This document shows, piece by piece, positions 1,864 through 34,481 of a stretch of 64,000 bases of DNA (positions are counted from its first letter, which is position 1; the number at the start of each line of letters is the position of its first letter). The stretch covers positions 64,001 through 128,000 of the IMG/VR virus record IMGVR_UViG_3300028821_000038, one strand, 5' to 3'. This DNA is from a virus. Under the pieces are notes generated by a model. That model was not told the DNA's origin and ran no database searches. It worked only from the letters and a program-made list of their open reading frames with translations. The position numbers were made by a program, and so were the translations under genes.

Positions 1864-1878
1864 CCATATATATATACC
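1864..1878 (-). promoter_or_regulatory. GGTATATATATATGG motif copy 1 (candidate phage promoter)
   Basis: Exact 15-mer upstream of the NYN/RecE operon; identical copies at 15259, 21082, 27858. Confidence 0.65.
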
Positions 1879-6348: not shown

Positions 6349-9300
6349 ATGTCTTTCAAGAAATTAAGTAGGCCATATAAGGAAACAGATGAACATGTAA
6401 AGGCAAAGTTGCTAGAAACTCTTTCAAATATGTTTCCAATACAAGGAAATTTTTTCACACTAAAAGCAACAAATTTTGCCATAAAAAAATCCGACCCATC
6501 TATGACTGATATAAAAAATGCCCTCATCAAGGGTTCCTCTTTGATGTCATCAGTTGTCGCGGATGTATCTTTGATTAATAACAATACAAAGAAGGTGATC
6601 GATAAAAAGAGAATGACAATCATGAGGGTGCCTGATTTCACAAAGAAGGGCTCTTTTATTGTTGACGGTAACTCATATACGGTTCCGTATCAGCAAAGGC
6701 TTAAGCCTGGCGTCTATACTATGATAAAGAGAAATGGCCAAACAGAATCCATGTTTAACCTTGCAAAAGGACGAAATTTCTCTATAAAAATAGACGAAAG
6801 TGGTATTTTTAGGATAAAAATAGGAACATCTCATGTGTATTTATACTCTATATTGCATGACTTGGGCATTCCAGATAGCGAAATTGTAAACTACATTGGG
6901 AAAAACCTCCTGGAGGTGAACAAAAAACACTATCACTCTTCGGATTCTGCAAAGTTTATAAAGCAATTCACATATAATGCTTCTTCTCATGATATTGGAA
7001 GCATCCAGGACGCTCTCAAGCATACCTCTGTAGATAAAAGTGTGGTAAAAAATACTCTTGGGGTTGAGTCACCTCATGTGGACCCTATTATGATTCTTCG
7101 TGCAGCCCAAAAGCTAAAAAATGTTAAATTTGGGAAAGAAGAGGAGGATGACAGGGAGAATCTTGTCTATAAAAAGATAATGACCCCGGAAGACATCATA
7201 TCCGAGTCTTTCGACAAGCTTGCCAAAGATGCAGTAAATAAACTCAAATTCAAACTAAGCAACCCATCCACCGAGAACCTATCTGATGTTTTTAGGGGAG
7301 GAAGTGGCTTGCTCACTAAGCCAATAAAGACATTTTTGACTTCATCTAAAATATCCAGGCTTAGTGAGGAATATAATCCACTAATGATGCATTCAGTAAA
7401 GCATCTGCTTACCCCTATGGGAGAAGGAGGGGTTGGTGATACACGGGCATTGAACCTGGATACAAAAGCTGTTCACCAAAGTCACTTAGGCTTTATAGAC
7501 CCGATAGCATCTCCAGAAGGAGCTAGTGTCGGAATTACTCTTTCTGTGACAGATAATGCCTATGTTGATGAGCATGGAAACCCAGCTATTGGAGTCATCA
7601 ATGCAAAAACTGGCAAGCGTGAAATTAAGAAAGTGTCTGATTTGTGGGATAAAAAACTAGCCTACCCAATTTCACCAGAAAAGGCCAAAAAGGGCGGTAT
7701 TGTAGTAAGATACAAAGACAAGGATATTATTGCAAAAAGCAAGAAAGATGTTGATTATATAATACCAAAAGATACAGATATTCACTCCCCATCTCTCAAT
7801 ATGGTTCCACTTGTAAACTCTTCAGACGCAAACAGAACCAATATGGCGCAAAAACATTTACAGCAGGCTCTATCGCTAAAAGAAAGAGAGGCACCAATTG
7901 TATCTGTAAAGAGCGGTAGCGACGATATGGCTGCAAAGCTTGTAAAAGATATGGAACTTCTTCCTCGCGCCCCTATAGATGGCGTTGTCACCAAGATAGC
8001 CAACGAGTATATATATATCAAAAATGGAAAAAATCTTGTAAAAGTTGATTATGTTACAAACATGCCGCTTGCGAGAAAAACATATTTGACACACTATCTG
8101 AAAGTTAAAGTGGGGGATAGAGTAAGAAAGGGCCAGATTTTAGCAGAATCAAACTACTCTAAAGACGGAAAGCTTGCGCTTGGAAAAAACCTAAGAACAG
8201 CATGGCTCTCGATGCCAGGAAACAGAAACGATGGAATAATAATCTCTGAAACAGCAGCAAAGGAACTATCATCCCTTCATATGTACAAAGAGGTTGTGGA
8301 TATCCCTCATGATTCTGTATTGGACAGAGAGAGATTTAGGAAGCTGTTTCCAGATATCGCTGCAAAATGGGGTATAGAGAACTATGATGAGCATGGTGTT
8401 ATAAAGAAGGGGACTATTTTAAAGTTCAAGCAACCCCTTGTTCTGAAAATGGCTAGGACTGATGCAAAAGAGATAAAATCAAAACTCGGAAAGGTAGTTC
8501 ACAAGCCTTATAAGGCAGTATTAAATATATGGAAGCACGAAAAAGATGGCGAAGTTATAGATGTTGAGAATAATGGAGCAGAAATACGCATTTCTGTTAA
8601 AACAGAGAGTGAAATGAAAATAGGTGATAAGCTCTCTGGAAGGCAAGGTAATAAGGGTATAGTAACTAAAATACTACCAGATGACCAGATGCCTGTTAAT
8701 ACCAAAGGTGAGCCTGTTCATGTACTGATGACTTCAGCGGGAGTTATCAGTCGTACAAATAGTGGTTCCCTTATAGAGGCCGGTCTTGGTAAAGTTGGAG
8801 ACAAGGCAGGCAAGACATACACTATTGGTCACTATGAAAAAGATGACAACTTGAAGTTTTTGGAAAGCGAAGCCAAAAAGCACAAAGTGGACCTATATGA
8901 AACACTTATAAATCCTGAGACAGGAAAACCATTTCCGCAGAAGATATTTGTAGGGAAGCCCTACATACTAAAGCTATTTAAGGATTCAGAGTCTGGAATG
9001 AGTGCTGTTGGTGTGGGTGCTACCGACATTAATGAACAACCCCTCAAAGGCGGAAATACTTCAGCTGCATCCATATCTGGAATGGAGGTGAATGGTTTAC
9101 TTGCTCATGGTGCCAAAGACTTTTTAAGGGAAGCCAAGCATATCAAAGGGCAAAAAAACGATGACTTTTTCCATGCCTTTAGAACAGGAAGCCCATTGCC
9201 GCCGCCAAAGGAGCATTTTGCAACAGAAAAATTCAAAGCATATCTGAGGCAGATCAATATCAATCCTATTGCAGACAAGCATACAAAAGAGTTCTCTTTG

Positions 9301-10671
9301 ATGCCAATGACAGACAAAGAAGTGGTTAAGATGTCATCTGGGGCAATCAAAAATACCGAAACAGTTGCCGCAAAAAATATGAAAGTTGTAAAAGGCGGAC
9401 TCTTTGATGAGAGCATCTTTGGTGGCCCCCAGGGTACAAGATATGGCCACATAAATCTTCCTATGAAGATATTGAATCCTTTATATAAAGAGCAGGTAGC
9501 TGGTTTACTTGGCGTTTCCGCAGGAAAGCTAATAGATGAAGTCAATCATAATGGGTTTGACGATATCGAGAAACGGATATCAAGTATAGATGTAGACAAA
9601 AAACTAAAGCAATTGAAGTATGAGTCTAAAAATACATCTAATCAGCAGCTCATAAATAAAAACATAAAACAAATCAAGTTTCTTGAGAAGATCAAAAATT
9701 CTGGTCACAAGCTGAAAGATGCAGTATTTATCTCAAAAATCCCAGTGATTCCTCCCGTATATCGCCCTATTGCCAAGGGGATGGATGGCTCAGTTACCGT
9801 TAATGATTTAAATATGTTCTACCAAGATATCGGAATGCTCTCTGATGCTATTAAGCACTCTGGGAAAATAAGCGGAGGTACAAAAAAAGAACTATCGAAA
9901 GACCTATATCACACTGTTGGCGCCTTATATGGAGTAGAAGAGACTCCCAATAAGAAGTTGAAAAATAAACAAATTAAAGGGGTTTTGGATATTCTAGGAG
10001 GAGAGACTCCAAAAAAATCATATATCCATAAAACCATGCTCAGGTCTAAGCAGTTTATGAGTGGAAGGGGAGTTATAAAGCCTGCTCGAAACGATATCGC
10101 CCTTGATGAGATAGAAATTCCTGAAAAAATGGGACTCGAGATGTATAGCCCTCATATTCAAAGGAATTTGGCCAGAAGAGGATATTCCCCAATAGAGGCA
10201 AAAGAGTTGATTGAAAATAGAGATCCAAGAGCTATCGAAACTCTTCATGAGATAGGAAAGCATATTCCTGTTGTGTACAACCGTGCTCCTACGCTATGGA
10301 AACACAATATACTAGGGGGGTATCCAAAGTTCATCAAAGGTAGCACAATCGGCATCAATCCTCTAGTCGAAAGAGCCATGAATGCCGATTACGATGGTGA
10401 TACTGTTTCAGTACATGTCCCCTTGACTGATAAGGCGATCCATGATGTAAAAACTAAAATAATGCCAAGTAAAGCATTGTTTACCGAGGAGAAGGGGTAT
10501 CACGATCCAGATGTTTTGTACCTGCCTAACCAAGATGCAACCCTTGGAATATATAAGGCGTCTTTAAAATCCAGAAAACCCGTTAAGAGGGTAAAAAATA
10601 TAGATGAATTGAAACACAAGATTGCATCAGGAGAAATAAACTATAACGATAAGGTGATAGTGACAAGCTAA
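6349..10671 (+). CDS. phage multisubunit-type RNA polymerase: beta fused to N-terminal half of beta'
   Basis: beta motifs FIVDG, HQSHLGFIDPIASPEG, DANR, LALGKN, GDKLSGRQGNKG, QPLKGG/MEV..L.AHGA; beta' motifs GLFDESIFG, GHINL, PVIPPVYRP, SGRGVI, NRAPTL, catalytic NADYDGD. Confidence 0.95.
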   Translation: MSFKKLSRPYKETDEHVKAKLLETLSNMFPIQGNFFTLKATNFAIKKSDPSMTDIKNALIKGSSLMSSVVADVSLINNNTKKVIDKKRMTIMRVPDFTKKGSFIVDGNSYTVPYQQRLKPGVYTMIKRNGQTESMFNLAKGRNFSIKIDESGIFRIKIGTSHVYLYSILHDLGIPDSEIVNYIGKNLLEVNKKHYHSSDSAKFIKQFTYNASSHDIGSIQDALKHTSVDKSVVKNTLGVESPHVDPIMILRAAQKLKNVKFGKEEEDDRENLVYKKIMTPEDIISESFDKLAKDAVNKLKFKLSNPSTENLSDVFRGGSGLLTKPIKTFLTSSKISRLSEEYNPLMMHSVKHLLTPMGEGGVGDTRALNLDTKAVHQSHLGFIDPIASPEGASVGITLSVTDNAYVDEHGNPAIGVINAKTGKREIKKVSDLWDKKLAYPISPEKAKKGGIVVRYKDKDIIAKSKKDVDYIIPKDTDIHSPSLNMVPLVNSSDANRTNMAQKHLQQALSLKEREAPIVSVKSGSDDMAAKLVKDMELLPRAPIDGVVTKIANEYIYIKNGKNLVKVDYVTNMPLARKTYLTHYLKVKVGDRVRKGQILAESNYSKDGKLALGKNLRTAWLSMPGNRNDGIIISETAAKELSSLHMYKEVVDIPHDSVLDRERFRKLFPDIAAKWGIENYDEHGVIKKGTILKFKQPLVLKMARTDAKEIKSKLGKVVHKPYKAVLNIWKHEKDGEVIDVENNGAEIRISVKTESEMKIGDKLSGRQGNKGIVTKILPDDQMPVNTKGEPVHVLMTSAGVISRTNSGSLIEAGLGKVGDKAGKTYTIGHYEKDDNLKFLESEAKKHKVDLYETLINPETGKPFPQKIFVGKPYILKLFKDSESGMSAVGVGATDINEQPLKGGNTSAASISGMEVNGLLAHGAKDFLREAKHIKGQKNDDFFHAFRTGSPLPPPKEHFATEKFKAYLRQININPIADKHTKEFSLMPMTDKEVVKMSSGAIKNTETVAAKNMKVVKGGLFDESIFGGPQGTRYGHINLPMKILNPLYKEQVAGLLGVSAGKLIDEVNHNGFDDIEKRISSIDVDKKLKQLKYESKNTSNQQLINKNIKQIKFLEKIKNSGHKLKDAVFISKIPVIPPVYRPIAKGMDGSVTVNDLNMFYQDIGMLSDAIKHSGKISGGTKKELSKDLYHTVGALYGVEETPNKKLKNKQIKGVLDILGGETPKKSYIHKTMLRSKQFMSGRGVIKPARNDIALDEIEIPEKMGLEMYSPHIQRNLARRGYSPIEAKELIENRDPRAIETLHEIGKHIPVVYNRAPTLWKHNILGGYPKFIKGSTIGINPLVERAMNADYDGDTVSVHVPLTDKAIHDVKTKIMPSKALFTEEKGYHDPDVLYLPNQDATLGIYKASLKSRKPVKRVKNIDELKHKIASGEINYNDKVIVTS

Positions 10672-15258: not shown

Positions 15259-15273
15259 CCATATATATATACC
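15259..15273 (-). promoter_or_regulatory. GGTATATATATATGG motif copy 2
   Basis: Exact 15-mer. Confidence 0.65.
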
Positions 15274-21081: not shown

Positions 21082-21096
21082 GGTATATATATATGG
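21082..21096 (+). promoter_or_regulatory. GGTATATATATATGG motif copy 3
   Basis: Exact 15-mer heading the SSB/rII gene cluster. Confidence 0.65.
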
Positions 21097-23625: not shown

Positions 23626-23877
23626 ATGCAAATGCTTTATCCAATCATAAAAACCAAAAAAGAAATCTCCCCAAACATGATAGGCCAAGAGCTTGTCCTG
23701 GAGGAGAAAGTTGTGTTGCTCGGAGTTATAGATGATTCTATCAAGCTTCCCAATTCATGTGCTGGATGTGCGTTCCAGCCGAAAGATGGCGAAGCGTATC
23801 CTATGTACTGTGTAGATTGCGCTAGATTCTACACAGACAAATGGGTAGGAGTCTGGGAAGATAAGGAGGAAGAATGA
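23626..23877 (+). CDS. small CxxC protein
   Basis: CAGC...CVDC; AAGGAG RBS. Confidence 0.55.
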   Translation: MQMLYPIIKTKKEISPNMIGQELVLEEKVVLLGVIDDSIKLPNSCAGCAFQPKDGEAYPMYCVDCARFYTDKWVGVWEDKEEE

Positions 23878-25997
23878 GAATAGATGGCAAAAGTAAAGTA
23901 TCAACAAACATATCAGGGGCAAAAGATTTTGATATAAACCCAACCCCTGAGATGTTTATGCTGCTCTCATCCGGCCTGTATCAAGACAAGATAAAAGCCG
24001 TGATTAGAGAGCTTTCTGCAAATGCTTTTGACGCGATGGTTAGCAATGGAACTATCAAAGAGAAGGCATTCGATGTTATTGGCCCTACCGAAAAAGATCC
24101 CGTATTTAGAATCAGGGACTATGGGCCAGGCTTGTCGGAGGATGAAATATATGCCCTGTATACGAAATATGGGGCTAGTAGCAAAAATGACACCAATAGC
24201 ATGATAGGTGCATTTGGTGTTGGCTCGAAATCACCTTTTGCATACACTATGCAGTTTACCGTCACAAGTTTTAACGGAGGAATAAAGAGTGTCTACTTGG
24301 CATATGTAGACGACGGCATTCCCCGTGTAAAAAAAATATCATCTGAACCCAGCAACGAGCCATCTGGGTTGATGGTAGAGGTTGGTGTATTTAGCAAAGA
24401 TATATCTACCTTCAATTCCAAAATATCAGATGTGATATCGTGGATGGACTTCCCCGGTCCAATACCAGAAGGTATTTGGAAAGATAGGAGGAAGGTGATA
24501 TCCATCCTAAAAGAAAAGGGATACTACACATTTCTATATAAACTCGATGGTCTGTATGTCTACTGTGGAGGAATAGTATACTCAGTTGACAAAGATGGCC
24601 TTGACGAGGATATCCTAGAGATGATAGACACCAATAGTGTGGTTTTGTATGCCCCAATTGGTAGTGTATCCATTGCTGCATCCAGAGAGTCAGTAGCGAT
24701 GGATAGCAGAACTTCACACTATATCCATAACACGCTGCGAAAAATAAAGAACGGTATCGTGTCTCACATAAAAGATGTGATATCTGATTCCGACAGCGTA
24801 GTCACGGCAGCCAAAAAAATATACGGAATGGTGGTGAAATATTCATCTGTAGACTTAAGCAAAAGAGATGCTATATTTCTCCATGTTTTAAAGACAGAAG
24901 TGCTCAATATGCTAAAAAATAGATTTAAATATGTTGAGCAACATTATAGACATCATAACAACGTCAATGCCTTGGTGTTTTTGTCACTTAGCGCAAGTGA
25001 CCCAAAAATATTATTTGCTGATTGGATGACTGTCTATCGTGAGTATAATGGTATGCCAAGTAACGCTATGTTGGTTATTGCCAACTCCAGGCATAGAATC
25101 AGACAAATAAGCACATTTTATGCCAATGAGCATGACTACGATTGTGTTATCGTGGTAGACCATGAAAAATATGAGGAGGAAAAAGAAAAAATATGTACGC
25201 TATTTGGCCACGACAATATATTTAATCAAAAATTCCTTCTGGAGTATTATAGAAACAATTCTCCAGATCTGAAAAACACTGCATCATCAGAGTTCGAGAC
25301 ACCAACAAGCAACCAGAAGTTTTATAGGTTTAAGGGGGAAAGTATGTCGTCGTTCTCGATGACTAAACTTCCAAAGGATAAAAAAATAATAGCCTTCAAA
25401 ACCAATCATACTGTAAACCATCAAGTATGGAGGATTATTGTGAGGTGGTTTAAAAGGTTTTTTGATGATAATGTAGATACTGTAGTACTTCCTAAGAGCA
25501 AATATCACATAGTTGACGACAATGAAAATGTGATATGGGCACACGATTACTTTAAAGAGAAGATTGGAACAAAAAAGTCGATTACTTTAGAGATAACACC
25601 CAGTGAGTATTTGATACACAATATATACTTCTTCTTATCACTCATTAGAGGTTTGACATATCGGGAGTACATTGAAAACAAAAGAATATCTATTATTCTT
25701 AATGCTGCCTCTAAAATGTATACAGAATCAAAATATCTGAGGAGTGACACAGAAAAAATCGAGGAGGTGTATAGTGCGATTTTTAATACTAAAATAAACA
25801 TAAAGCTCAAGCTGGACAGGAAGTATGTTTTTGTAAAAAACATGGTGGCCGAAATAAACTTTAAAGAGGTGATAACACACCAAAATGCTCTGGAGATTCT
25901 GGAGTACATATACAGCGGCACTTATCCTGTTTACAGTGCTGAAAAATTTGAAAAAATACTGAAAGGAAGAGAGGATGTTTCCTTTTATATTAAATAG
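23874..25997 (+). CDS. rIIA: rIIA-like protein (GHKL/HSP90-type ATPase N-terminus)
   Basis: LYQDKIKAVIRELSANAFDA, IRDYGPGLS, IGAFGVGSKSPFAYT; followed by rIIB. Confidence 0.9.
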   Translation: MRIDGKSKVSTNISGAKDFDINPTPEMFMLLSSGLYQDKIKAVIRELSANAFDAMVSNGTIKEKAFDVIGPTEKDPVFRIRDYGPGLSEDEIYALYTKYGASSKNDTNSMIGAFGVGSKSPFAYTMQFTVTSFNGGIKSVYLAYVDDGIPRVKKISSEPSNEPSGLMVEVGVFSKDISTFNSKISDVISWMDFPGPIPEGIWKDRRKVISILKEKGYYTFLYKLDGLYVYCGGIVYSVDKDGLDEDILEMIDTNSVVLYAPIGSVSIAASRESVAMDSRTSHYIHNTLRKIKNGIVSHIKDVISDSDSVVTAAKKIYGMVVKYSSVDLSKRDAIFLHVLKTEVLNMLKNRFKYVEQHYRHHNNVNALVFLSLSASDPKILFADWMTVYREYNGMPSNAMLVIANSRHRIRQISTFYANEHDYDCVIVVDHEKYEEEKEKICTLFGHDNIFNQKFLLEYYRNNSPDLKNTASSEFETPTSNQKFYRFKGESMSSFSMTKLPKDKKIIAFKTNHTVNHQVWRIIVRWFKRFFDDNVDTVVLPKSKYHIVDDNENVIWAHDYFKEKIGTKKSITLEITPSEYLIHNIYFFLSLIRGLTYREYIENKRISIILNAASKMYTESKYLRSDTEKIEEVYSAIFNTKINIKLKLDRKYVFVKNMVAEINFKEVITHQNALEILEYIYSGTYPVYSAEKFEKILKGREDVSFYIK

Positions 25998-27063
25998 TGA
26001 TTCGTTAACAATTGTGGAGGGCGGAAGAGTCCACACTATCATGTCGGATAATCCAAAATTCGACGAGGTGATCTCTTCGCTCACCACTGGAAATGAAGAA
26101 GAGGTTCTGGAGGCTATAAACGACGCATATAAGATAGACAAGTTTCTTGGCAAAAAATGTGTCGTCAAGGATGACTCTTTGTATTATGATGGGTTGGAGC
26201 TGCATGGCGCCATCATAGAAAGAGCAAAAAGCTTCATAAAGAAGGATATCCCTGTAGATCCGCTTCTCAGATTTATAGAGAAGCTCATGATGAATGAGGA
26301 TTTGGAGTCAGTAAAGGATCTGTATAGGTTCTTGGAGCACAACAAGCTTCCTATCACAAGTTCCGGGAACTTTCTTGCCTATAAAAAGGTAAAGAATAAT
26401 TACCGAGACTTTCATTCAGGGATGAATGATAACAGTGTGGGGAGTATCGTGAAGATGAACCGCCATAATGTTACGAAAGATAGAAATATCACTTGTTCAA
26501 CCGGACTTCACTTCGCGTCATATCAGTATGTAAAAAACTTTATGCGTGACGGCCGCATGGTTGTACTGGAGATAAATCCTGCGGATGTGGTAAGCATACC
26601 CGTCGATTATAACAACGCAAAAGGGCGATGTTGCAAATATAAAGTCGTAGGAGAGCTCCAAAAATTAGATAGAGATGTCCTTGGTGGGAAAGATTATATA
26701 TCGGAAATCAAAAGGGACGGCTCGGTAGTGTTCGACTTTGATTTTGAAGCGAAAAATCCCATAGAGGAGGCTATCAATATATCGCAAAGTGAGGTCTTGG
26801 CGTATATGCTAAAAGACCCGACTAAGCCAGAATTTACATTTGATGGCGAACTTGGCATGATTGTCCCTAATATCAAATATTGTTATATAGATAAAGGGAA
26901 GTATCGGGTCAATAAGAAGTTTAAAGGCAAAAACTATGAACTTGGTCGGTTTGACAATTTTAAGGCGGCTCGTTCGGTTGTATATGAGTTGTGCCGCGCT
27001 ATAGTAGATGGCAAAAAAGAAGAGTTTATTGAAGAATATATGAAGAGCAAGGATAAAAAATGA
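25975..27063 (+). CDS. rIIB: rIIB-like protein with C-terminal AP2-like segment
   Basis: LYRFLE..LPIT..GNFLAYKKV, DFHSG..DNSVG, TCSTGLH, INPADVVSIPVDY..KGRCC. Confidence 0.9.
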   Translation: MFPFILNSDSLTIVEGGRVHTIMSDNPKFDEVISSLTTGNEEEVLEAINDAYKIDKFLGKKCVVKDDSLYYDGLELHGAIIERAKSFIKKDIPVDPLLRFIEKLMMNEDLESVKDLYRFLEHNKLPITSSGNFLAYKKVKNNYRDFHSGMNDNSVGSIVKMNRHNVTKDRNITCSTGLHFASYQYVKNFMRDGRMVVLEINPADVVSIPVDYNNAKGRCCKYKVVGELQKLDRDVLGGKDYISEIKRDGSVVFDFDFEAKNPIEEAINISQSEVLAYMLKDPTKPEFTFDGELGMIVPNIKYCYIDKGKYRVNKKFKGKNYELGRFDNFKAARSVVYELCRAIVDGKKEEFIEEYMKSKDKK

Positions 27064-27857: not shown

Positions 27858-27872
27858 GGTATATATATATGG
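27858..27872 (+). promoter_or_regulatory. GGTATATATATATGG motif copy 4
   Basis: Exact 15-mer heading the peptide-JAB-E1-E2 operon. Confidence 0.65.
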
Positions 27873-27942
27873 TCGGGGAAAATAATGCCTAAGGTATTTC
27901 TTCGTAAAACCCCGGCCAATAAAAACAAAAAAAGGAGACCAC

Positions 27943-28101
27943 ATGGCAGTAGACGCTAAAGAGGCAACCACGGTTGCCACGGCAATACTGGAAACGGTAT
28001 TGTCAAAGCTCGGTGACGAGCAGAAACAAAAAGAGTTCGCGGAGAAGGCAGAAGCCGTATCCGCTCAAAATGTAGAGGTTGCAGGAAAGTCTGGAATGTA
28101 A
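27943..28101 (+). CDS. 52-aa candidate protein modifier/precursor peptide ending GKSGM (not in ORF track)
   Basis: AAAGGAG RBS; MAVDAKEATTVATAILETVLSKLGDEQKQKEFAEKAEAVSAQNVEVAGKSGM. Confidence 0.75.
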   Translation: MAVDAKEATTVATAILETVLSKLGDEQKQKEFAEKAEAVSAQNVEVAGKSGM

Positions 28102-28112
28102 CCTCTCATTAC

Positions 28113-28148
28113 AGGAGGGGGATGACATCCTTCTCCTACTATTTTTTT
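28113..28148 (+). terminator. intrinsic terminator/attenuator after the 52-aa peptide
   Basis: AGGAGGGGGATG-a-CATCCTTCTCCT stem then T7. Confidence 0.65.
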
Positions 28149-28163
28149 AGATAAGGAGAAAGC

Positions 28164-29261
28164 GTGAAGCAGAAAATGAAAAAGACAACAAAGAAAACCA
28201 GAAAGAATATTGAGAGGCCCATAGAAAAAGTCAATATCAAAAATCTTGGCGTTCTGATAATAACAAGGAGTAAGTTATCAGAAATTTGGGATATTGTCAA
28301 AGATAAAGTAGGGAGCAATGAGTTCCAAATACATTATCATTCCGTTACATTCAAATGTTCCAAAGATGGAAGTGATATGTATTTGGTTATCCCTACGGCT
28401 TTTTATACATTCCCGCAGAACATATCCTCTATACTTATAGAATATAAAATGAGTGATATCGAACCTGCGAGCAAAAAGGTTTTAGATATTCACAACAAGG
28501 TAATGCAAAAGATGCATATAGTTGAAGAGTATCTGAATCTTTTGAAGATTTTTGATTCTGTAACACCCATGAGTGTGTTCGACAATAGTCTCCATCGACA
28601 TCCTCATGAGTTTGGGTTCTCAAATATCGATCTGGATAACGATCCAGAAAACCCCGGAATCATATTCAGGAAGAAAAAAGCCCAAAATTATCCACAAATG
28701 GATAGTGTGATGTATTTTGGGAGAAATAACTCATCTATCGTTACCTCCGAATTAAGGTTGGTTACAGTGAAGCCAACAAAAGATGGAGGGATTGAAGGGG
28801 AGTATGTCGAGTGCCCCACTGTCACCATAATAGATCCAAAAAAACAATATGGAATGGAGAGTGTTTTTGGGATCAGGGATGAGAAGTATCCTCATTCTAA
28901 TTTGTGTCAGGTAAAGTATGATATGTCAATAATATCACCCATTATGGCAAGCATACTGCCGAATATAGAATGGGGAGTAACTACCGGCATCAAGCCTCAA
29001 TTCATAGAGACAATAAAAGAAAGAGCCATACCGGCAAATAATTTTTCTAGTATCTTATGGGACGAGGATGAGTTGTGGACGGGAGATAGTCTGGTTCCAG
29101 ATACCAATCTCGAGCTTGAGGCAAAAGAGAGGATTGCTCTAATGTCGGAAGAGGAGATAGCCATGATGAAAAGCATGGGTTTTGACGCCAAAATACCTAC
29201 AGATGTCATAGAGTTCTATGACTACGAGTTGCAAATTCTTACAAGGGGGGCTAAAGAATGA
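28164..29261 (+). CDS. JAB/MPN+ metallo-isopeptidase-like protein
   Basis: Upstream Glu (SNEFQI) and HRHP-x4-FS-x2-D (HRHPHEFGFSNID), like JAMM HxH...S..D. Confidence 0.7.
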   Translation: MKQKMKKTTKKTRKNIERPIEKVNIKNLGVLIITRSKLSEIWDIVKDKVGSNEFQIHYHSVTFKCSKDGSDMYLVIPTAFYTFPQNISSILIEYKMSDIEPASKKVLDIHNKVMQKMHIVEEYLNLLKIFDSVTPMSVFDNSLHRHPHEFGFSNIDLDNDPENPGIIFRKKKAQNYPQMDSVMYFGRNNSSIVTSELRLVTVKPTKDGGIEGEYVECPTVTIIDPKKQYGMESVFGIRDEKYPHSNLCQVKYDMSIISPIMASILPNIEWGVTTGIKPQFIETIKERAIPANNFSSILWDEDELWTGDSLVPDTNLELEAKERIALMSEEEIAMMKSMGFDAKIPTDVIEFYDYELQILTRGAKE

Positions 29262-30196
29262 TATCTGCACTCTATGAAGAGCGATTAGAAAGAAAATACA
29301 TTAAGAAAGCGCCTTTTGAGGATGGGGCGCTGCCATTTCTCTATTTCGCCGATACCAACATCCTTCAGGATGTCCCACTATTAAATCTAAATGCCCCTAT
29401 TTTAATGCCAAACAAGTATCAAGTAGACAGGAATAAAACATATCTGGAGTTACTGAAAGGGATACATAAAAATGCCCAGATTTATTTCCCGCATGAGGAA
29501 ATTCCAGATATGACAGATGACCTAGTTGTAGGCTTGGGAAGTAGGCTAATAGAGGTACTAAACTCATACAACTATATATATGTAATTGGGATTGGTGGCT
29601 ACATGGCAAATATGTTATTTATGATGGATTTATTGTATAGAGTAGGAACAAAAGTCAAGTATAGACCCATTACACAAATAAGATGTTATGATGGGGACAC
29701 GATTACTGCAGATAACATATGTAGAATACTGATTCCTGTTTATAAATATACTTCCAAGGGTATGTCTATGGCATCATATTTTTTGTCAGATATGTCGTCT
29801 TGTTCGACGGAGATGATGTATTTGCCTAAGATATTACAGGCTAATGCACTGGAGATGCCAATCACTACCCGTGGGCATTATTGTGCTCCGACCAGTTTGC
29901 CAGTTGGAACAAACAATACAAACCTCTTTATTGGTTCCCCTGACCTCAAAACAAGGCGGGAACTTTTCGATATAGGCTTTAATTTCATATTCTTTGGGCA
30001 TCATGGGTACCAAACCCAGATGGTGTACCGTCCACTCCCGGATAGCGATATGGCCGTAGAGACTTATGGTCGTATGGATATAAATGCATTTTATGCAGGC
30101 ATCTATATGACATTGCTCAAATTTTTAGAGATTGAGCATCCGATTTTATATCACGATGGCAAGATAATTGCTACATTTAATGCAACAAGGCTTTAG
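29258..30196 (+). CDS. ThiF/E1-like adenylating enzyme
   Basis: YVIGIGG glycine loop, DGDTITADNICR (DxD..xxN.xR), GSPDLKTRREL (D...R). Confidence 0.7.
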   Translation: MISALYEERLERKYIKKAPFEDGALPFLYFADTNILQDVPLLNLNAPILMPNKYQVDRNKTYLELLKGIHKNAQIYFPHEEIPDMTDDLVVGLGSRLIEVLNSYNYIYVIGIGGYMANMLFMMDLLYRVGTKVKYRPITQIRCYDGDTITADNICRILIPVYKYTSKGMSMASYFLSDMSSCSTEMMYLPKILQANALEMPITTRGHYCAPTSLPVGTNNTNLFIGSPDLKTRRELFDIGFNFIFFGHHGYQTQMVYRPLPDSDMAVETYGRMDINAFYAGIYMTLLKFLEIEHPILYHDGKIIATFNATRL

Positions 30197-30204
30197 GAAC
30201 ACAC

Positions 30205-31326
30205 ATGGGACAAATAAATTTCAATGTATTCAATAAGACAGGAGTCGATGATGACTTTTGCAAGAAAATCATCAAAAATGGGCTGGATTTTCCCATCTTG
30301 GACGATATATCCACATCGGATATTTTGGCGGGATACACCGCTGTTTGGCAGAACACTATAAATGATATATTCAACGATGTTTCTAAAAATATTGGCTTCA
30401 GTAAGTATAACATATGTTACGAAGCTAGTGATGAAGCAATCGACGAATACGATTTAATTGGTGAAGTCAACATAGAAAACATTGAAGGCTATTTCTACAT
30501 AACGAAATATGATAAGCTAGATGTCATCGGGCATATCGAACTTTCGTCATGCATAAAAATAAACGACCAAAGTGATCTCAATACAACGATGGTGTTTATT
30601 GAGGCAATGGTTGAAAAAAATGAATTATACGGAATTTTGCTGACTGATGGTGTAGGAAATTTCTTGAATCCAGCACATCCGATTGTGGCTAAAAGGGTGA
30701 GAGAGGTTGGGATAGAGTATTTCTTCAACAAGCCATTTAAGATTATTGTATATGCCTGGCGCAAAACAGCAACAAGCGCTGGGCGTTTTACCAATATGTA
30801 TACATTAACACCGCTCTCTAGACCGATAACGGAGCCGGTGATGAAAATAAAAAGTGCAAGTAATGCGGTAAGCATATTTAAGCCATATTCCAAGCACCCT
30901 TTAAAAAATGTCCATGTAGACATCAACATAAATGACAGGAAGCTGTGTGACAATTATGTGGTGGTGCCAGTGCAAGTTGCACAGTATAAGGGAATCGTAT
31001 ATCCCTGGTATGGTGCCGTAGCCAGGGAAATTGGGGCAAAAACGGGGTTTAATATTGGCCCGATGTTATCCCCAAATATATCTAGTGAGTTTTCCGAATG
31101 TGAGTGTGATATGGAAAGGATATCATATACTCTGGATAATTCCGGTTTTAGCTCACTGCCGTTTGATGTCTGTACTGGCTCATATCCTGTAGCATCTATA
31201 GAGGGGTTTGCTACCTTAAATGTTGCAAATTTTGATTCTCCATACCACAGTAACGCCTGCAATATGGATCCTGTATTCATAAAGACTGCAATGGCTAAAC
31301 AGTCACTGGAGATTTTGAGGTCATGA
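30205..31326 (+). CDS. prokaryotic E2/UBC-like protein
   Basis: LSPNIS...DVCTG...LNVANFDSPY, like HPNI...ICxG...NxxSPY; operon context. Confidence 0.55.
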   Translation: MGQINFNVFNKTGVDDDFCKKIIKNGLDFPILDDISTSDILAGYTAVWQNTINDIFNDVSKNIGFSKYNICYEASDEAIDEYDLIGEVNIENIEGYFYITKYDKLDVIGHIELSSCIKINDQSDLNTTMVFIEAMVEKNELYGILLTDGVGNFLNPAHPIVAKRVREVGIEYFFNKPFKIIVYAWRKTATSAGRFTNMYTLTPLSRPITEPVMKIKSASNAVSIFKPYSKHPLKNVHVDININDRKLCDNYVVVPVQVAQYKGIVYPWYGAVAREIGAKTGFNIGPMLSPNISSEFSECECDMERISYTLDNSGFSSLPFDVCTGSYPVASIEGFATLNVANFDSPYHSNACNMDPVFIKTAMAKQSLEILRS

Positions 31327-31784
31327 AAGAGGTAGAGATATACACAGACGGAGCATGCGATGTGCACCAGACCAAGACAGGTGGATGGTGCGCGATAGTT
31401 ATATATGGCGACCTAAAGAAGATCATAAGTGGAGGTGCTAAAAACACTACCAATAACCAAATGGAACTCACGGCGGTAATAGAGGGACTAGAGATTCTCA
31501 AAGAGCCATGCCGTATAAAGATATACAGTGACTCCAGATATGTAATAGACGCCATAAATTCACGCCTAAAGAATTGGGTACTGAGAGGCCTGGATGAGAA
31601 TTACCTAAACCCAGACCTATGGCGCAGATACATATTCACTGCATATCCCCATGAGGTTGAAGGAATATGGATTAGGGGCCACAATGGAAACAAACTAAAT
31701 GAGGAGTGCGATGCGATAGCAAAGAAAGAGATAAAGAAACTAAAAGGACGAAACACCCAAAGCTCTGCTCCATTCGACATATAA
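31323..31784 (+). CDS. rnhA: ribonuclease HI
   Basis: IYTDGAC, TTNNQMELTA, SDSRYV, NPDLW, WIRGHNG..NEECD. Confidence 0.95.
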   Translation: MKEVEIYTDGACDVHQTKTGGWCAIVIYGDLKKIISGGAKNTTNNQMELTAVIEGLEILKEPCRIKIYSDSRYVIDAINSRLKNWVLRGLDENYLNPDLWRRYIFTAYPHEVEGIWIRGHNGNKLNEECDAIAKKEIKKLKGRNTQSSAPFDI

Positions 31785-33455: not shown

Positions 33456-34019
33456 ATGAAAGCATATAATCTTAAAGCTACTGAAGTGGAGCTTGCTAGC
33501 GGGGTAAAATTCCCCGCTGTAGTGTTGGGCGAGAGGGGCAGAGGCAGGAGGCAGGTTTTCGTCCCATGCCCCGAGGGGCTCAAGGATGGAGACTCTGTAG
33601 TACTAAAGGAAACCCGCACGGGTCGCCCCAAAGTCGTGAGAGGCGGGAGTGAGGACGGTTTCTGGCTGGCACATATCAGCACCGAGGCCGCATATATCCG
33701 CGGTGCTCGTGGCAGAGTATATGTGCATAAAGACGATAAAGACAAACTTCAGGTGATAGAGCAGGGCTGGGGCGCCTTTGGCGCTGCCGGCCGGGTGGGG
33801 AACTGGGACGATTTGCTGCTGCGTATAGATGCGTCCACCCCAGTCGTACTAGGGGTGAAGCCGAGCAGGGGTCCGTTGTATTATCTTCTTTTTTTGAGTG
33901 ACGAGATAAAACGATTTAGCTCAATAGAAGATCTAAAGATAGAAATCGATGTACTGGAGATAGACTGTAACACCCTTAATGGGGAAGACACAGTAGTATT
34001 AAGCAAGGAGCATATATAA
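33456..34019 (+). CDS. hypothetical protein (locally higher GC)
   Basis: AAAGGA RBS, 187 aa. Confidence 0.65.
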   Translation: MKAYNLKATEVELASGVKFPAVVLGERGRGRRQVFVPCPEGLKDGDSVVLKETRTGRPKVVRGGSEDGFWLAHISTEAAYIRGARGRVYVHKDDKDKLQVIEQGWGAFGAAGRVGNWDDLLLRIDASTPVVLGVKPSRGPLYYLLFLSDEIKRFSSIEDLKIEIDVLEIDCNTLNGEDTVVLSKEHI

Positions 34020-34031
34020 AGGGGGTATTTT

Positions 34032-34481
34032 TTGGAAAAAGAGGATGAGAAATTAATCCGGATAGTCAGCGAACATATAGGTCACACTGTTAAGCGAGTT
34101 ACTTTCGCTGTAGATGCATCAACTTTGCTATGGTGCGATCCTAAAGACATCTATTGGACTCTATATGAAGGATGGAGGCCTAGATACGATATAACTATCG
34201 AGAATCTCATTTCTGAGGAATATATAGCCAAATATCTTGACGCAGATATTGGTCTATTAGTGTTCGATAGTGTCAAAGAGTTTAATAAATTTAAGGAGTA
34301 TATGGATGCGGTAAAGCTTGCAATAGAAGAAGAATGCGAGGAAATTGTATTTGAGTTGGAGGAAGGTGATTTATCCCTTAATAAAGCAGGGACAGATAGG
34401 TTTGAGTATAGAATCTACGAAAGGTTTAAAAAAAGAGTAGATGAGTACACAAAAAAACTTCAAGAAAAGGAAATAAAATGA
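34032..34481 (+). CDS. hypothetical protein
   Basis: TTG start, 149 aa. Confidence 0.55.
   Translation: MEKEDEKLIRIVSEHIGHTVKRVTFAVDASTLLWCDPKDIYWTLYEGWRPRYDITIENLISEEYIAKYLDADIGLLVFDSVKEFNKFKEYMDAVKLAIEEECEEIVFELEEGDLSLNKAGTDRFEYRIYERFKKRVDEYTKKLQEKEIK

Follow-up and report, generated by a model that had tools for sequence, protein, structure and literature searches.

Does the phage genome analysed here encode a protein-conjugation pathway of its own and, if so, what is attached and by which enzymes? The question arises from a window of 64,000 nucleotides (the whole stretch of DNA that was analysed), in which a first-pass annotation had noted a promoter motif, a 52-aa ORF and three tightly spaced genes, and had read them as a complete conjugation cycle with its own modifier. 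The motif, the ORF and the gene trio are all present in the sequence. On balance, comparative sequence analysis favours a phage-encoded minimal ubiquitin-like pathway for the ATP-dependent conjugation of a short tag lacking the beta-grasp fold, distantly related to operon type 6d, known as PRTRC.

Genomic organization and distribution of the module

The module consists of a short peptide gene and the genes for a JAB protease, an E1-like adenylyltransferase and a candidate carrier (ORF4). It is conserved at about 30 distinct loci, nearly all of them phage or phage-like, and its carriers fall into two lineages that share almost no other genes. Wherever a locus is long enough to contain all three enzyme genes, they lie side by side, in two gene orders, and they are separate, without fusions, in all loci; a peptide homologue lies directly 5′ of them in essentially every locus with room for it. 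The proposed four-gene synteny is thereby borne out, all four genes co-occurring across loci, and the claim that a phage carries the operon is supported by the source genome. By inference, this phage infects a vent Campylobacterota bacterium.

The genes flanking the operon vary between the two lineages. No further partner gene is conserved across both, and none in the neighbourhoods inspected is a candidate target. Two neighbouring genes were considered and rejected: (i) an 80-100 aa gene 5′ of the peptide in many loci, examined as a hidden beta-grasp protein or fifth component, because it has no C-terminal Gly motif and is missing from the source genome, G002 and G004; (ii) an RNase H gene (31,323-31,784, + strand; Pfam RNase_H, E 4.7e-33), considered as a core part and excluded from the conserved module. 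The latter is translationally coupled to ORF4 here and follows ORF4 in loci L002 and L007, being absent from that position in L008 and the distant loci inspected.

Taken singly, the four window proteins gave no significant match in Pfam, PHROGs or NCBIfam (where tested). No match to ORF4, E1 or JAB homologues was obtained in GenBank phages by tblastn, no significant match to the module in plasmid sequences, and no cultured phage with the module was found; the literature searches likewise returned no description of it. A scan of 185,579 species genomes, with a single E1 motif of the second lineage as query, recovered two small contigs, both in one MAG. One of these, 6,954 bp long, agrees in length and peptide with metagenome contig L032, and both resemble the phage locus L018; the MAG contigs are therefore probably mis-binned.

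Between two phages of about 95% identity, nucleotide identity falls to 54-87% inside the E1-ORF4 block as against 86-100% outside it. By this comparison E1 and ORF4 are exchanged as one block between near-identical phages, which suggests diversifying pressure. Such pressure, and the occurrence of the module almost only in phages, would suit a module working mainly as a decoy or jammer directed at the ubiquitin-like defences of the host (Bil, CBASS Cap2 or Bub), with the abundant peptide occupying host E1 or E2 and the JAB stripping host tags from phage proteins; the host systems that use E1/E2/JAB chemistry are indeed anti-phage (PMC11601596). Nevertheless, an own E1 and a Cys carrier are kept in every locus, neither of which a decoy needs, and we consider this explanation very improbable.

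Candidate transcription signals and the short peptide

The operon is preceded by a promoter-like 14-mer in which GG leads into a TA tract (27,858-27,871, + strand). The 162-kb genome has six exact copies, where a dinucleotide model predicts 0.004, and they sit 53-174 nt 5′ of a same-strand ORF; the motif was not found in four other operon-bearing genomes examined. An RNA polymerase of the phage itself probably recognises it. A sigma-70 promoter was rejected, since its matches are no commoner than in shuffled sequences. The 14-mer is followed by complementary G-rich and C-rich arms, which probably pair as a stem in the transcript's 5′ leader (27,871-27,917, + strand), and by the peptide ORF (27,943-28,101, + strand) with an AGGAG ribosome-binding site. 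An intrinsic-terminator-like hairpin with an 11-pair stem and a T tract lies 3′ of the peptide gene (28,113-28,145, + strand), with a folding z of only −1.9. Both arms of the leader stem and of the hairpin are present in L002. The terminator-like site may keep the peptide in excess over the enzymes.

The peptide, a candidate modifier precursor, has a helical-looking N-terminal half, and its C-terminal end reads K-S-G51 (Gly codon 28,093-28,095) and then a single tail residue. Among 29 peptides, at least 90% have S50 and G51, and SG with 1-3 variable residues forms the C-terminal end in 27 of the 29, compared with 1.6% of background short ORFs. These peptides are 37-52 aa long, which is too short for the ubiquitin fold, contain about 40% Ala/Ser/Thr and almost no aromatic residues, and give no Pfam match to ubiquitin-like proteins. 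Thirteen synonymous and five non-synonymous codon changes separate the window's copy from its L002 homologue. A head-to-tail repeat of the peptide in L047 has its junction exactly after the Gly; coming from a single assembly with identical copies, it is only suggestive. Ser-Gly followed by 1-3 variable residues is what a JAB-trimmed tag would show, and because of this conserved SG and throw-away tail the peptide is the probable modifier, in agreement with the earlier proposal that the phage supplies its own.

The JAB protease and the E1-like adenylyltransferase

The JAMM and ThiF/E1 signatures noted in the first pass are real and are conserved in 25 JAB and 35 E1 homologues. The JAB/JAMM metallopeptidase of 361-365 aa (28,164-29,261, + strand; start GTG 28,164 or ATG 28,176, the gene callers' choice) is composed of a catalytic N-terminal part of about 210 aa and a variable acidic tail. 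In ATG numbering, E49, H140, H142 and D152 are invariant and S149 is nearly so. The profile of PRTRC protein A is matched with E 0.0034 and a score of 29, against a permuted maximum of 16, through a common HxH...FSGTD motif, while the match to Prok-JAB is weak and limited to 2 of 11 members.

The ThiF/MoeB-type E1-like adenylyltransferase (29,258-30,196, + strand; 312 aa) overlaps the JAB ORF by ATGA and is a single adenylation domain. Its adenylation residues are kept, with G111/G113/G114, N153, R156 and K191 invariant across all homologues, and a ThiF fold is indicated by ESM Atlas (TM 0.64). Profile comparison (hhalign) with the PRTRC ThiF family gave 95% probability and E 3.9e-8; PRTRC_ThiF (TIGR03736) is matched by 12 of the 35 members (best E 2.5e-6), the window's own E1 not being among them when taken singly. 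Weak matches to ThiF adenylyltransferases were also seen.

No Cys is invariant among the 35 E1 sequences; the best Cys columns reach 60% and 57%, and both lack Cys in this phage, which leaves the enzyme without the thioester step of classical E1s. The motif E268-x-Y270-G271 is invariant, with Y270 in 35/35 (Tyr codon 30,065-30,067), and alignment order would place this Tyr in the crossover loop. Tyr270 may be structural rather than catalytic. Of the conjugation cycle first proposed, the JAB and E1 identities are supported; an invariant catalytic E1 Cys and a beta-grasp tag are lacking.

An E1 of this kind also has to be weighed against other pathways. MccB-type E1s modify short peptides without a catalytic Cys, and the gene for the short precursor precedes the enzymes and is followed by a terminator-like site of its own, as might be expected if the E1 made a stable peptide-adenylate or another modified, microcin C-like peptide that inhibits an enzyme of the host, and if JAB and ORF4 served its maturation. 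However, microcin C needs a terminal Asn, whereas here a conserved Ser-Gly is followed by an unconserved tail, and the loci inspected contain no exporter, immunity or cyclodehydratase gene; such a RiPP-like product is quite improbable.

A Cys-less E1 combined with a JAB-trimmed carrier is the normal design of sulfur relays. The module could accordingly be imagined as a sulfur carrier system comparable to ThiS, MoaD or CysO, in which the Gly, once exposed by the JAB and adenylated by the E1, is converted by a persulfide on the ORF4 Cys to a thiocarboxylate that thiolates tRNA, DNA or a cofactor. The weak E1 matches to ThiF adenylyltransferases and the inferred vent host are compatible with it. 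Known carriers nevertheless have a beta-grasp fold, the E1 agrees best with the conjugation-type PRTRC ThiF family, no rhodanese was found in the five carrier genomes searched, and the loci inspected have no conserved sulfur-using enzyme next to the operon, all of which makes this reading improbable.

The candidate E2-like carrier

ORF4 (30,205-31,326, + strand; 373 aa) is regarded as a candidate E2-like carrier on the basis of motif conservation. It is built of a variable N-terminus, a conserved N-P-x-H-P middle domain and a C-terminal domain with Cys323 (codon 31,171-31,173). Clustering at 50% identity left 83 relatives, the family ranging from 310 to 530 aa. P267, N291, C323 and S345 are invariant in 77 homologues. 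In register with bacterial UBC motifs ORF4 scores 19.4 against a permuted maximum of 18.5; the Cys is present in 76/76 homologues aligned in this way, and the His of the HxN motif in 48 of the 76, being replaced by Val in this phage. The Cys and the downstream HxN also align in register with PRTRC protein B, weakly (E 0.016-0.14). ORF4-E2 profile matches are weak as well (E 0.0065-0.14, probability below 6%), the best of them being obtained after manual removal of a variable insert, and PRTRC profiles used as cross-controls reached 15-16.

AF2 models of ORF4 had pLDDT of 79 and 74. Neither the whole protein nor residues 196-373 matched the UBC fold, a four-stranded meander with helices, in the PDB or Atlas (Foldseek, VIA and Atlas searches); the best VIA rows, with Z 3.7 and 2.1, concerned unrelated chains, and Foldseek and Atlas gave only E>0.5 and TM<0.3, respectively. 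An ATP-grasp fold was rejected as noise (faint rows, Z about 3), and a BFVD search returned only a family member, Podoviridae sp. ctiuS14. ORF4 does not match PF14460 (Prok-E2_D), its homologues have no significant match in Pfam or PHROGs, and no standalone relative of 83-331 aa was found for the C-terminal domain. With four fold searches giving no UBC match, the E2 label is unconfirmed. The structures expected by the first-pass annotation were thus recovered for E1 and not for ORF4, whose E2-like motif is itself real, conserved and weakly matched in register.

The peptide could then be trimmed and activated while ORF4 would not be an E2 but either some unrelated enzyme with a Cys or itself the last acceptor, the end-point being ORF4 itself or a non-protein amine such as a lipid, nucleotide, cell-wall or DNA substituent. 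This would explain the missing UBC fold match, a size about twice that of an E2, the second conserved His-containing motif and the lack of a protein target in the neighbourhood of the loci inspected. On the other hand, several motifs occur in E2 order with Cys on Cys, and both partner enzymes are PRTRC-like, the third enzyme of PRTRC having been assigned as E2-like (PMC1779556). We judge this alternative unlikely, though with an appreciable chance of being right, and retain ORF4 as the candidate carrier.

Comparison with known systems

The closest known system, judged from sequence, is PRTRC (ParB-related, ThiF-related cassette; TIGR03736 etc.), operon type 6d of Iyer, Burroughs and Aravind 2006 (PMC1779556), and not CBASS or Bil, which the first-pass annotation had listed together with PRTRC-type operons. 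In both cases separate genes on mobile DNA encode a small Gly-tailed protein, a JAB, a ThiF-type E1 and a Cys-bearing E2-like protein, for which ORF4 is the candidate here. There are differences, however. The PRTRC tag is a beta-grasp protein of about 69 aa that already ends in Gly; the crossover PSC cysteine, found in both PRTRC ThiFs compared, is lacking here, where a Tyr is invariant; and ORF4 is a 310-530 aa protein without a PF14460 match in a phage-borne module. Without a beta-grasp tag and an E1 Cys, the module is not a PRTRC member.

The adenylation domain of the Bub systems (6E; BubCD/BubBD; Ye et al., PMC11601596) has no catalytic Cys either, and its crossover region carries an invariant Tyr, to which the E1 Tyr appears equivalent by position, not by superposition. 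Maturation of the Bub modifier is a JAB cut behind a conserved Gly (PMC11601596), as is predicted here. In contrast to Bub, with its beta-grasp BubA, Ser-based E2, JAB-E1 or E2-E1 fusions and BubE, the phage module is formed from separate genes, a carrier with an invariant Cys and a tag without ubiquitin fold.

Bil (BilABCD) and type II CBASS Cap2/Cap3 share E1, E2 and JAB chemistry without an E3, the JAB trimming or reversing. Both are host defences. BilD carries tandem (inactive/active) adenylation domains and a Cys domain, and BilA is a beta-grasp protein; Cap2 joins E2 and E1 in one protein and acts on a CD-NTase. Neither arrangement occurs here: the E1 is a single adenylation domain, E1 and ORF4 are separate genes, and the enzyme genes are flanked in the window by the peptide gene and RNase H, not by a CD-NTase. 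Pup is a short, low-complexity, non-beta-grasp tag, and in this the phage peptide resembles it, but Pup is ligated through a Glu side chain by the glutamine-synthetase-like PafA, while ThiF/JAB enzymes and a conserved Gly are found here.

Proposed pathway and its significance

In the favoured conjugation pathway, the peptide would be made in excess from the phage promoter, as the 14-mer and terminator-like site suggest. The JAB, with its intact JAMM site, would trim the tail of 1-3 residues to Ser-Gly-COOH, and a homodimeric ThiF-type E1 with conserved ATP-site residues would adenylate the exposed Gly. Since the E1 has no conserved Cys, the acyl group may travel by way of a Tyr270 oxyester, the route of Bub E1s, or go straight from the adenylate to a Cys323 thioester on ORF4. 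ORF4 would then hand the peptide to a target lysine; as no E3 is present, it would itself select the target, by means of the large variable N-terminal region, and the JAB may reverse the modification. Most likely the purpose would be the remodelling of a host protein, or opposition to host defence, during infection. The first-pass annotation had suggested the tagging of host proteins, protection of virion proteins or jamming of host ubiquitin-like defences as possible roles.

In its most specific form the proposal is tentative: an E1 tyrosine oxyester would be relayed to a cysteine thioester on a carrier without recognisable UBC fold, and an unstructured peptide of about 40-50 aa would replace ubiquitin on host proteins picked by an exchangeable E1-carrier allele. 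Tyr-based E1 chemistry and JAB maturation have been demonstrated for Bub (PMC11601596); a mixed Tyr-to-Cys relay and a short-peptide tag class were not found in the literature searched.

Prokaryotic E1/E2/JAB chemistry has so far been described mostly from host defences against phages, whose modifiers are beta-grasp proteins or enzymes, and the conserved four-gene version in unrelated phages suggests viral use of the same chemistry. If the proposal is true, a ThiF-type E1 activates a short peptide without ubiquitin fold, and the module is a small system in which E1 catalysis through a tyrosine could be examined together with a cysteine carrier. The prediction of PRTRC/6d dates from 2006, and no functional test of it was found in the literature; the minimal kit and its natural allele swaps would provide a tractable way into the PRTRC/6d question.

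Genome context and organization of the operon

The module consists of four genes on the plus strand: a 52-aa peptide ORF (27943-28101), a JAMM-type metallopeptidase ORF (JAB; 361 or 365 aa, starting at 28176 or 28164 and ending at 29261), a ThiF/MoeB-type adenylyltransferase-like ORF (E1; 312 aa, 29258-30196) and ORF4, a candidate E2-like carrier (373 aa, 30205-31326). A hairpin with a T run is located 3' of the peptide gene, and an RNase H gene directly 3' of ORF4 overlaps it. Individually, the four proteins were named by none of the libraries searched. The first-pass annotation had described the region 27858-31326 as an E1/E2/JAB conjugation operon with its own modifier, and every motif it cited is present in the window sequence. 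The rIIA-like (HATPase) and rIIB genes lie upstream, at 23874-27063. The otherwise identical contig of locus L004 lacks about 1 kb at 33463-34464, including most of two ORFs, reflecting either variation within the population or a difference in assembly.

Exact copies of a promoter-like 14-mer occur at 1865-1878 (-), 15260-15273 (-), 21082-21095 (+) and 27858-27871 (+), with two further copies beyond the window. As all six genome copies lie 53-174 nt 5' of a same-strand ORF and 0.004 were expected, this is a genuine repeated element. We infer that it is read by the phage's own RNA polymerase, of which a 1,440-aa subunit (6349-10671) shares about 30% identity with the subunits of Salmonella phage Arash and Vibrio phages D181, D148 and D69. 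The window belongs to a 162-kb virus record. The closest relatives of its SSB (about 40%) are found in Nitratiruptor phages and in Sulfurovum, Campylobacter and Caminibacter plasmids, and runs from the same studies come from marine or hydrothermal-vent samples; together these make a Campylobacterota host from vents likely.

Conservation and spread

At 50%-identity clustering 83 relatives of ORF4 were found, one of which, the repeat-type match P0013, was set aside. Together with E1 profiles the others yielded about 70 loci, containing 35 distinct E1s, 25 full JABs and 29 distinct peptides. In agreement with the synteny expected by the first-pass annotation, the three enzyme genes adjoin in every sufficiently long locus, and the module is real and conserved. 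The commonest gene order is peptide-E1-ORF4-JAB; the order peptide-JAB-E1-ORF4 is found in this phage and locus L002, and the enzyme genes of L007, a locus truncated upstream, are arranged as in these two.

Four other carrier genomes (59-205 kb) have 17-80 proteins in common among themselves and 1-5 with this phage, including 1-2 operon proteins. Since so few proteins besides those of the operon are shared, the module has moved between unrelated lineages: the RNA-polymerase-encoding lineage of this phage, and a second one with a T7-type polymerase and very large ORFs, which is probably N4-like. GenBank phages gave zero matches to module homologues, and only two contigs, probably mis-binned, came from a scan of species genomes that was limited to one motif. 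A gene of 80-100 aa stands immediately 5' of the peptide gene in about 29 second-lineage loci (e.g. L017, 3433-3690) and is missing from this genome and from carrier genomes G002 and G004. A DUF7566 gene occurs close upstream of the peptide gene in L023 (3442-3678) and L024 (2444-2830).

The peptide and its putative protease

The search for peptides covered about 330 nt from the first enzyme gene and, in three loci, was extended by hand. The homologues are 37-52 aa long, with about 40% Ala/Ser/Thr and nearly no aromatics, and most are 12-25% identical to the window peptide. Ser50 and Gly51 are retained in at least 90%. Ser-Gly followed by 1-3 variable residues forms the C-terminus in 27 of the 29 peptides (which are related to one another) and in 1.6% of 931 background short ORFs; the other two also carry a Gly near the end. 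The beta-grasp fold needs about 65-75 aa or more, so the peptide is too short to adopt it. A conserved Gly, a seemingly disposable tail and a JAB gene alongside are the pattern of a protease-matured modifier, as shown for BubAB (PMC11601596). In L047 (278-498) the peptide coding sequence is repeated head-to-tail, the copies being joined immediately behind the conserved Gly. This resembles a polyubiquitin precursor and is suggestive only, because the copies do not differ from each other and a normal start is missing from the first.

In JAB, E49, H140, H142 and D152 are invariant and S149 nearly so. Its profile matches two PRTRC protein A sequences (PRTRC being operon type 6d) with a score of 29 against a permuted maximum of 16 (E 0.0034), sharing the HxH...FSGTD motif; JAB is regarded as carrying an intact JAMM site. 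A stop immediately following the H-x-H-P motif interrupts the JAB gene of two different phages (L013, 5752-6141 and 4927-5742, minus strand; L015, 6073-6507 and 6863-7789). The Ser/Asp portion forms an independent ORF that has a start of its own, and an unrelated gene separates the halves in L015; these are possibly naturally split metallopeptidases.

E1 and the proposed pathway

The Atlas model of E1 matches ThiF proteins, and its family profile gives weak PDB matches to UBA5 and further E1s. Its nearest named family is PRTRC ThiF (12/35 members match; hhalign 95%, E 3.9e-8). The Gly loop, N153, R156 and K191 are invariant. The ThiF/E1 assignment proposed earlier thus stands, but without an invariant Cys: none was found among the 35 homologues, the top columns reaching 60% and 57%, both without Cys here. 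A short segment precedes the last long helix, at the place occupied by the PSC cysteine in PRTRC ThiF, and includes the invariant residues E268, Y270 and G271. Bub (6E) E1s also lack the Cys and require an invariant crossover Tyr for conjugation (PMC11601596). By position, Y270 may be its counterpart; an equally plausible route would lead straight from the adenylate to ORF4.

Taken together, the best reading, and probably the correct one, is that JAB would trim the peptide, E1 would adenylate it, and the peptide would pass to Cys323 of ORF4 and from there to an amine of the target. Use of the same activation chemistry in a sulfur relay is unlikely, as a search of five carrier genomes for rhodanese was negative and no sulfur-using gene is conserved near the operon. 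A microcin-C-like product and, slightly less probable still, a pure decoy fit the conservation pattern more poorly, and both are very improbable.

ORF4 as a candidate carrier

Residues P267, N291, C323 and S345 of ORF4 are invariant, and its AlphaFold model has a confident core. Against seven bacterial UBCs, the ORF4 profile aligns in register at the P..N-I segment and at the Cys (E 0.011; with a variable insert removed, E 0.0065, score 19.4 against a permuted maximum of 18.5), and a forced alignment carries the register on to the N..S-P-Y motif. The comparison with PRTRC protein B aligns the Cys together with an HxN motif downstream of it (E 0.016-0.14). The His of HxN, a mark of 6d E2s (Iyer et al., PMC1779556), is present in 48/76 homologues and is Val in this phage. 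These matches are weak, given cross-control scores of up to 15-16. The E2 proposed in the first-pass annotation retains its motif order and Cys in weak register, but no E2 chain was among the results of Foldseek, VIA-align and Atlas searches with ORF4, either whole or as residues 196-373. A non-E2 acceptor or enzyme would accord with the fold searches and is a rather unlikely alternative; judged by its context and motif order, ORF4 is more probably a highly diverged E2-like carrier. Upstream of E1 in L009, positions 2-256 hold the final part of another ORF4-like gene, including the CTG motif, and this locus may carry two carriers.

Relationship to known systems and exchange of E1 and ORF4

The module resembles PRTRC/6d, Bub and the anti-phage system Bil in its proposed mode of working, and among these PRTRC has the enzymes closest to its own. 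It is not classed with any of them, since each is defined in part by features that the module lacks (tag fold, E1 Cys, E2 nucleophile, fusions). No description of it was found in the mostly open-access literature searched.

The L002 phage and this phage are 86-100% identical in peptide, JAB, RNase H and downstream DNA, whereas identity across about 29,190-31,330 is just 54-87%. Protein identity for E1 and ORF4 falls to 65% and 60%, compared with 89-97% in their neighbours, with many synonymous changes, and the last 24 peptide residues are identical. Codons 1-28 of the peptide gene (27943-28030) show many synonymous differences from L002, the rest being nearly identical, which suggests an additional recombination patch. 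As the drop in identity is confined to this region between near-identical surroundings, E1 and ORF4 were replaced as one block. Such an exchange is consistent with E1 and carrier acting as a matched pair, the tag being shared and the specificity variable.
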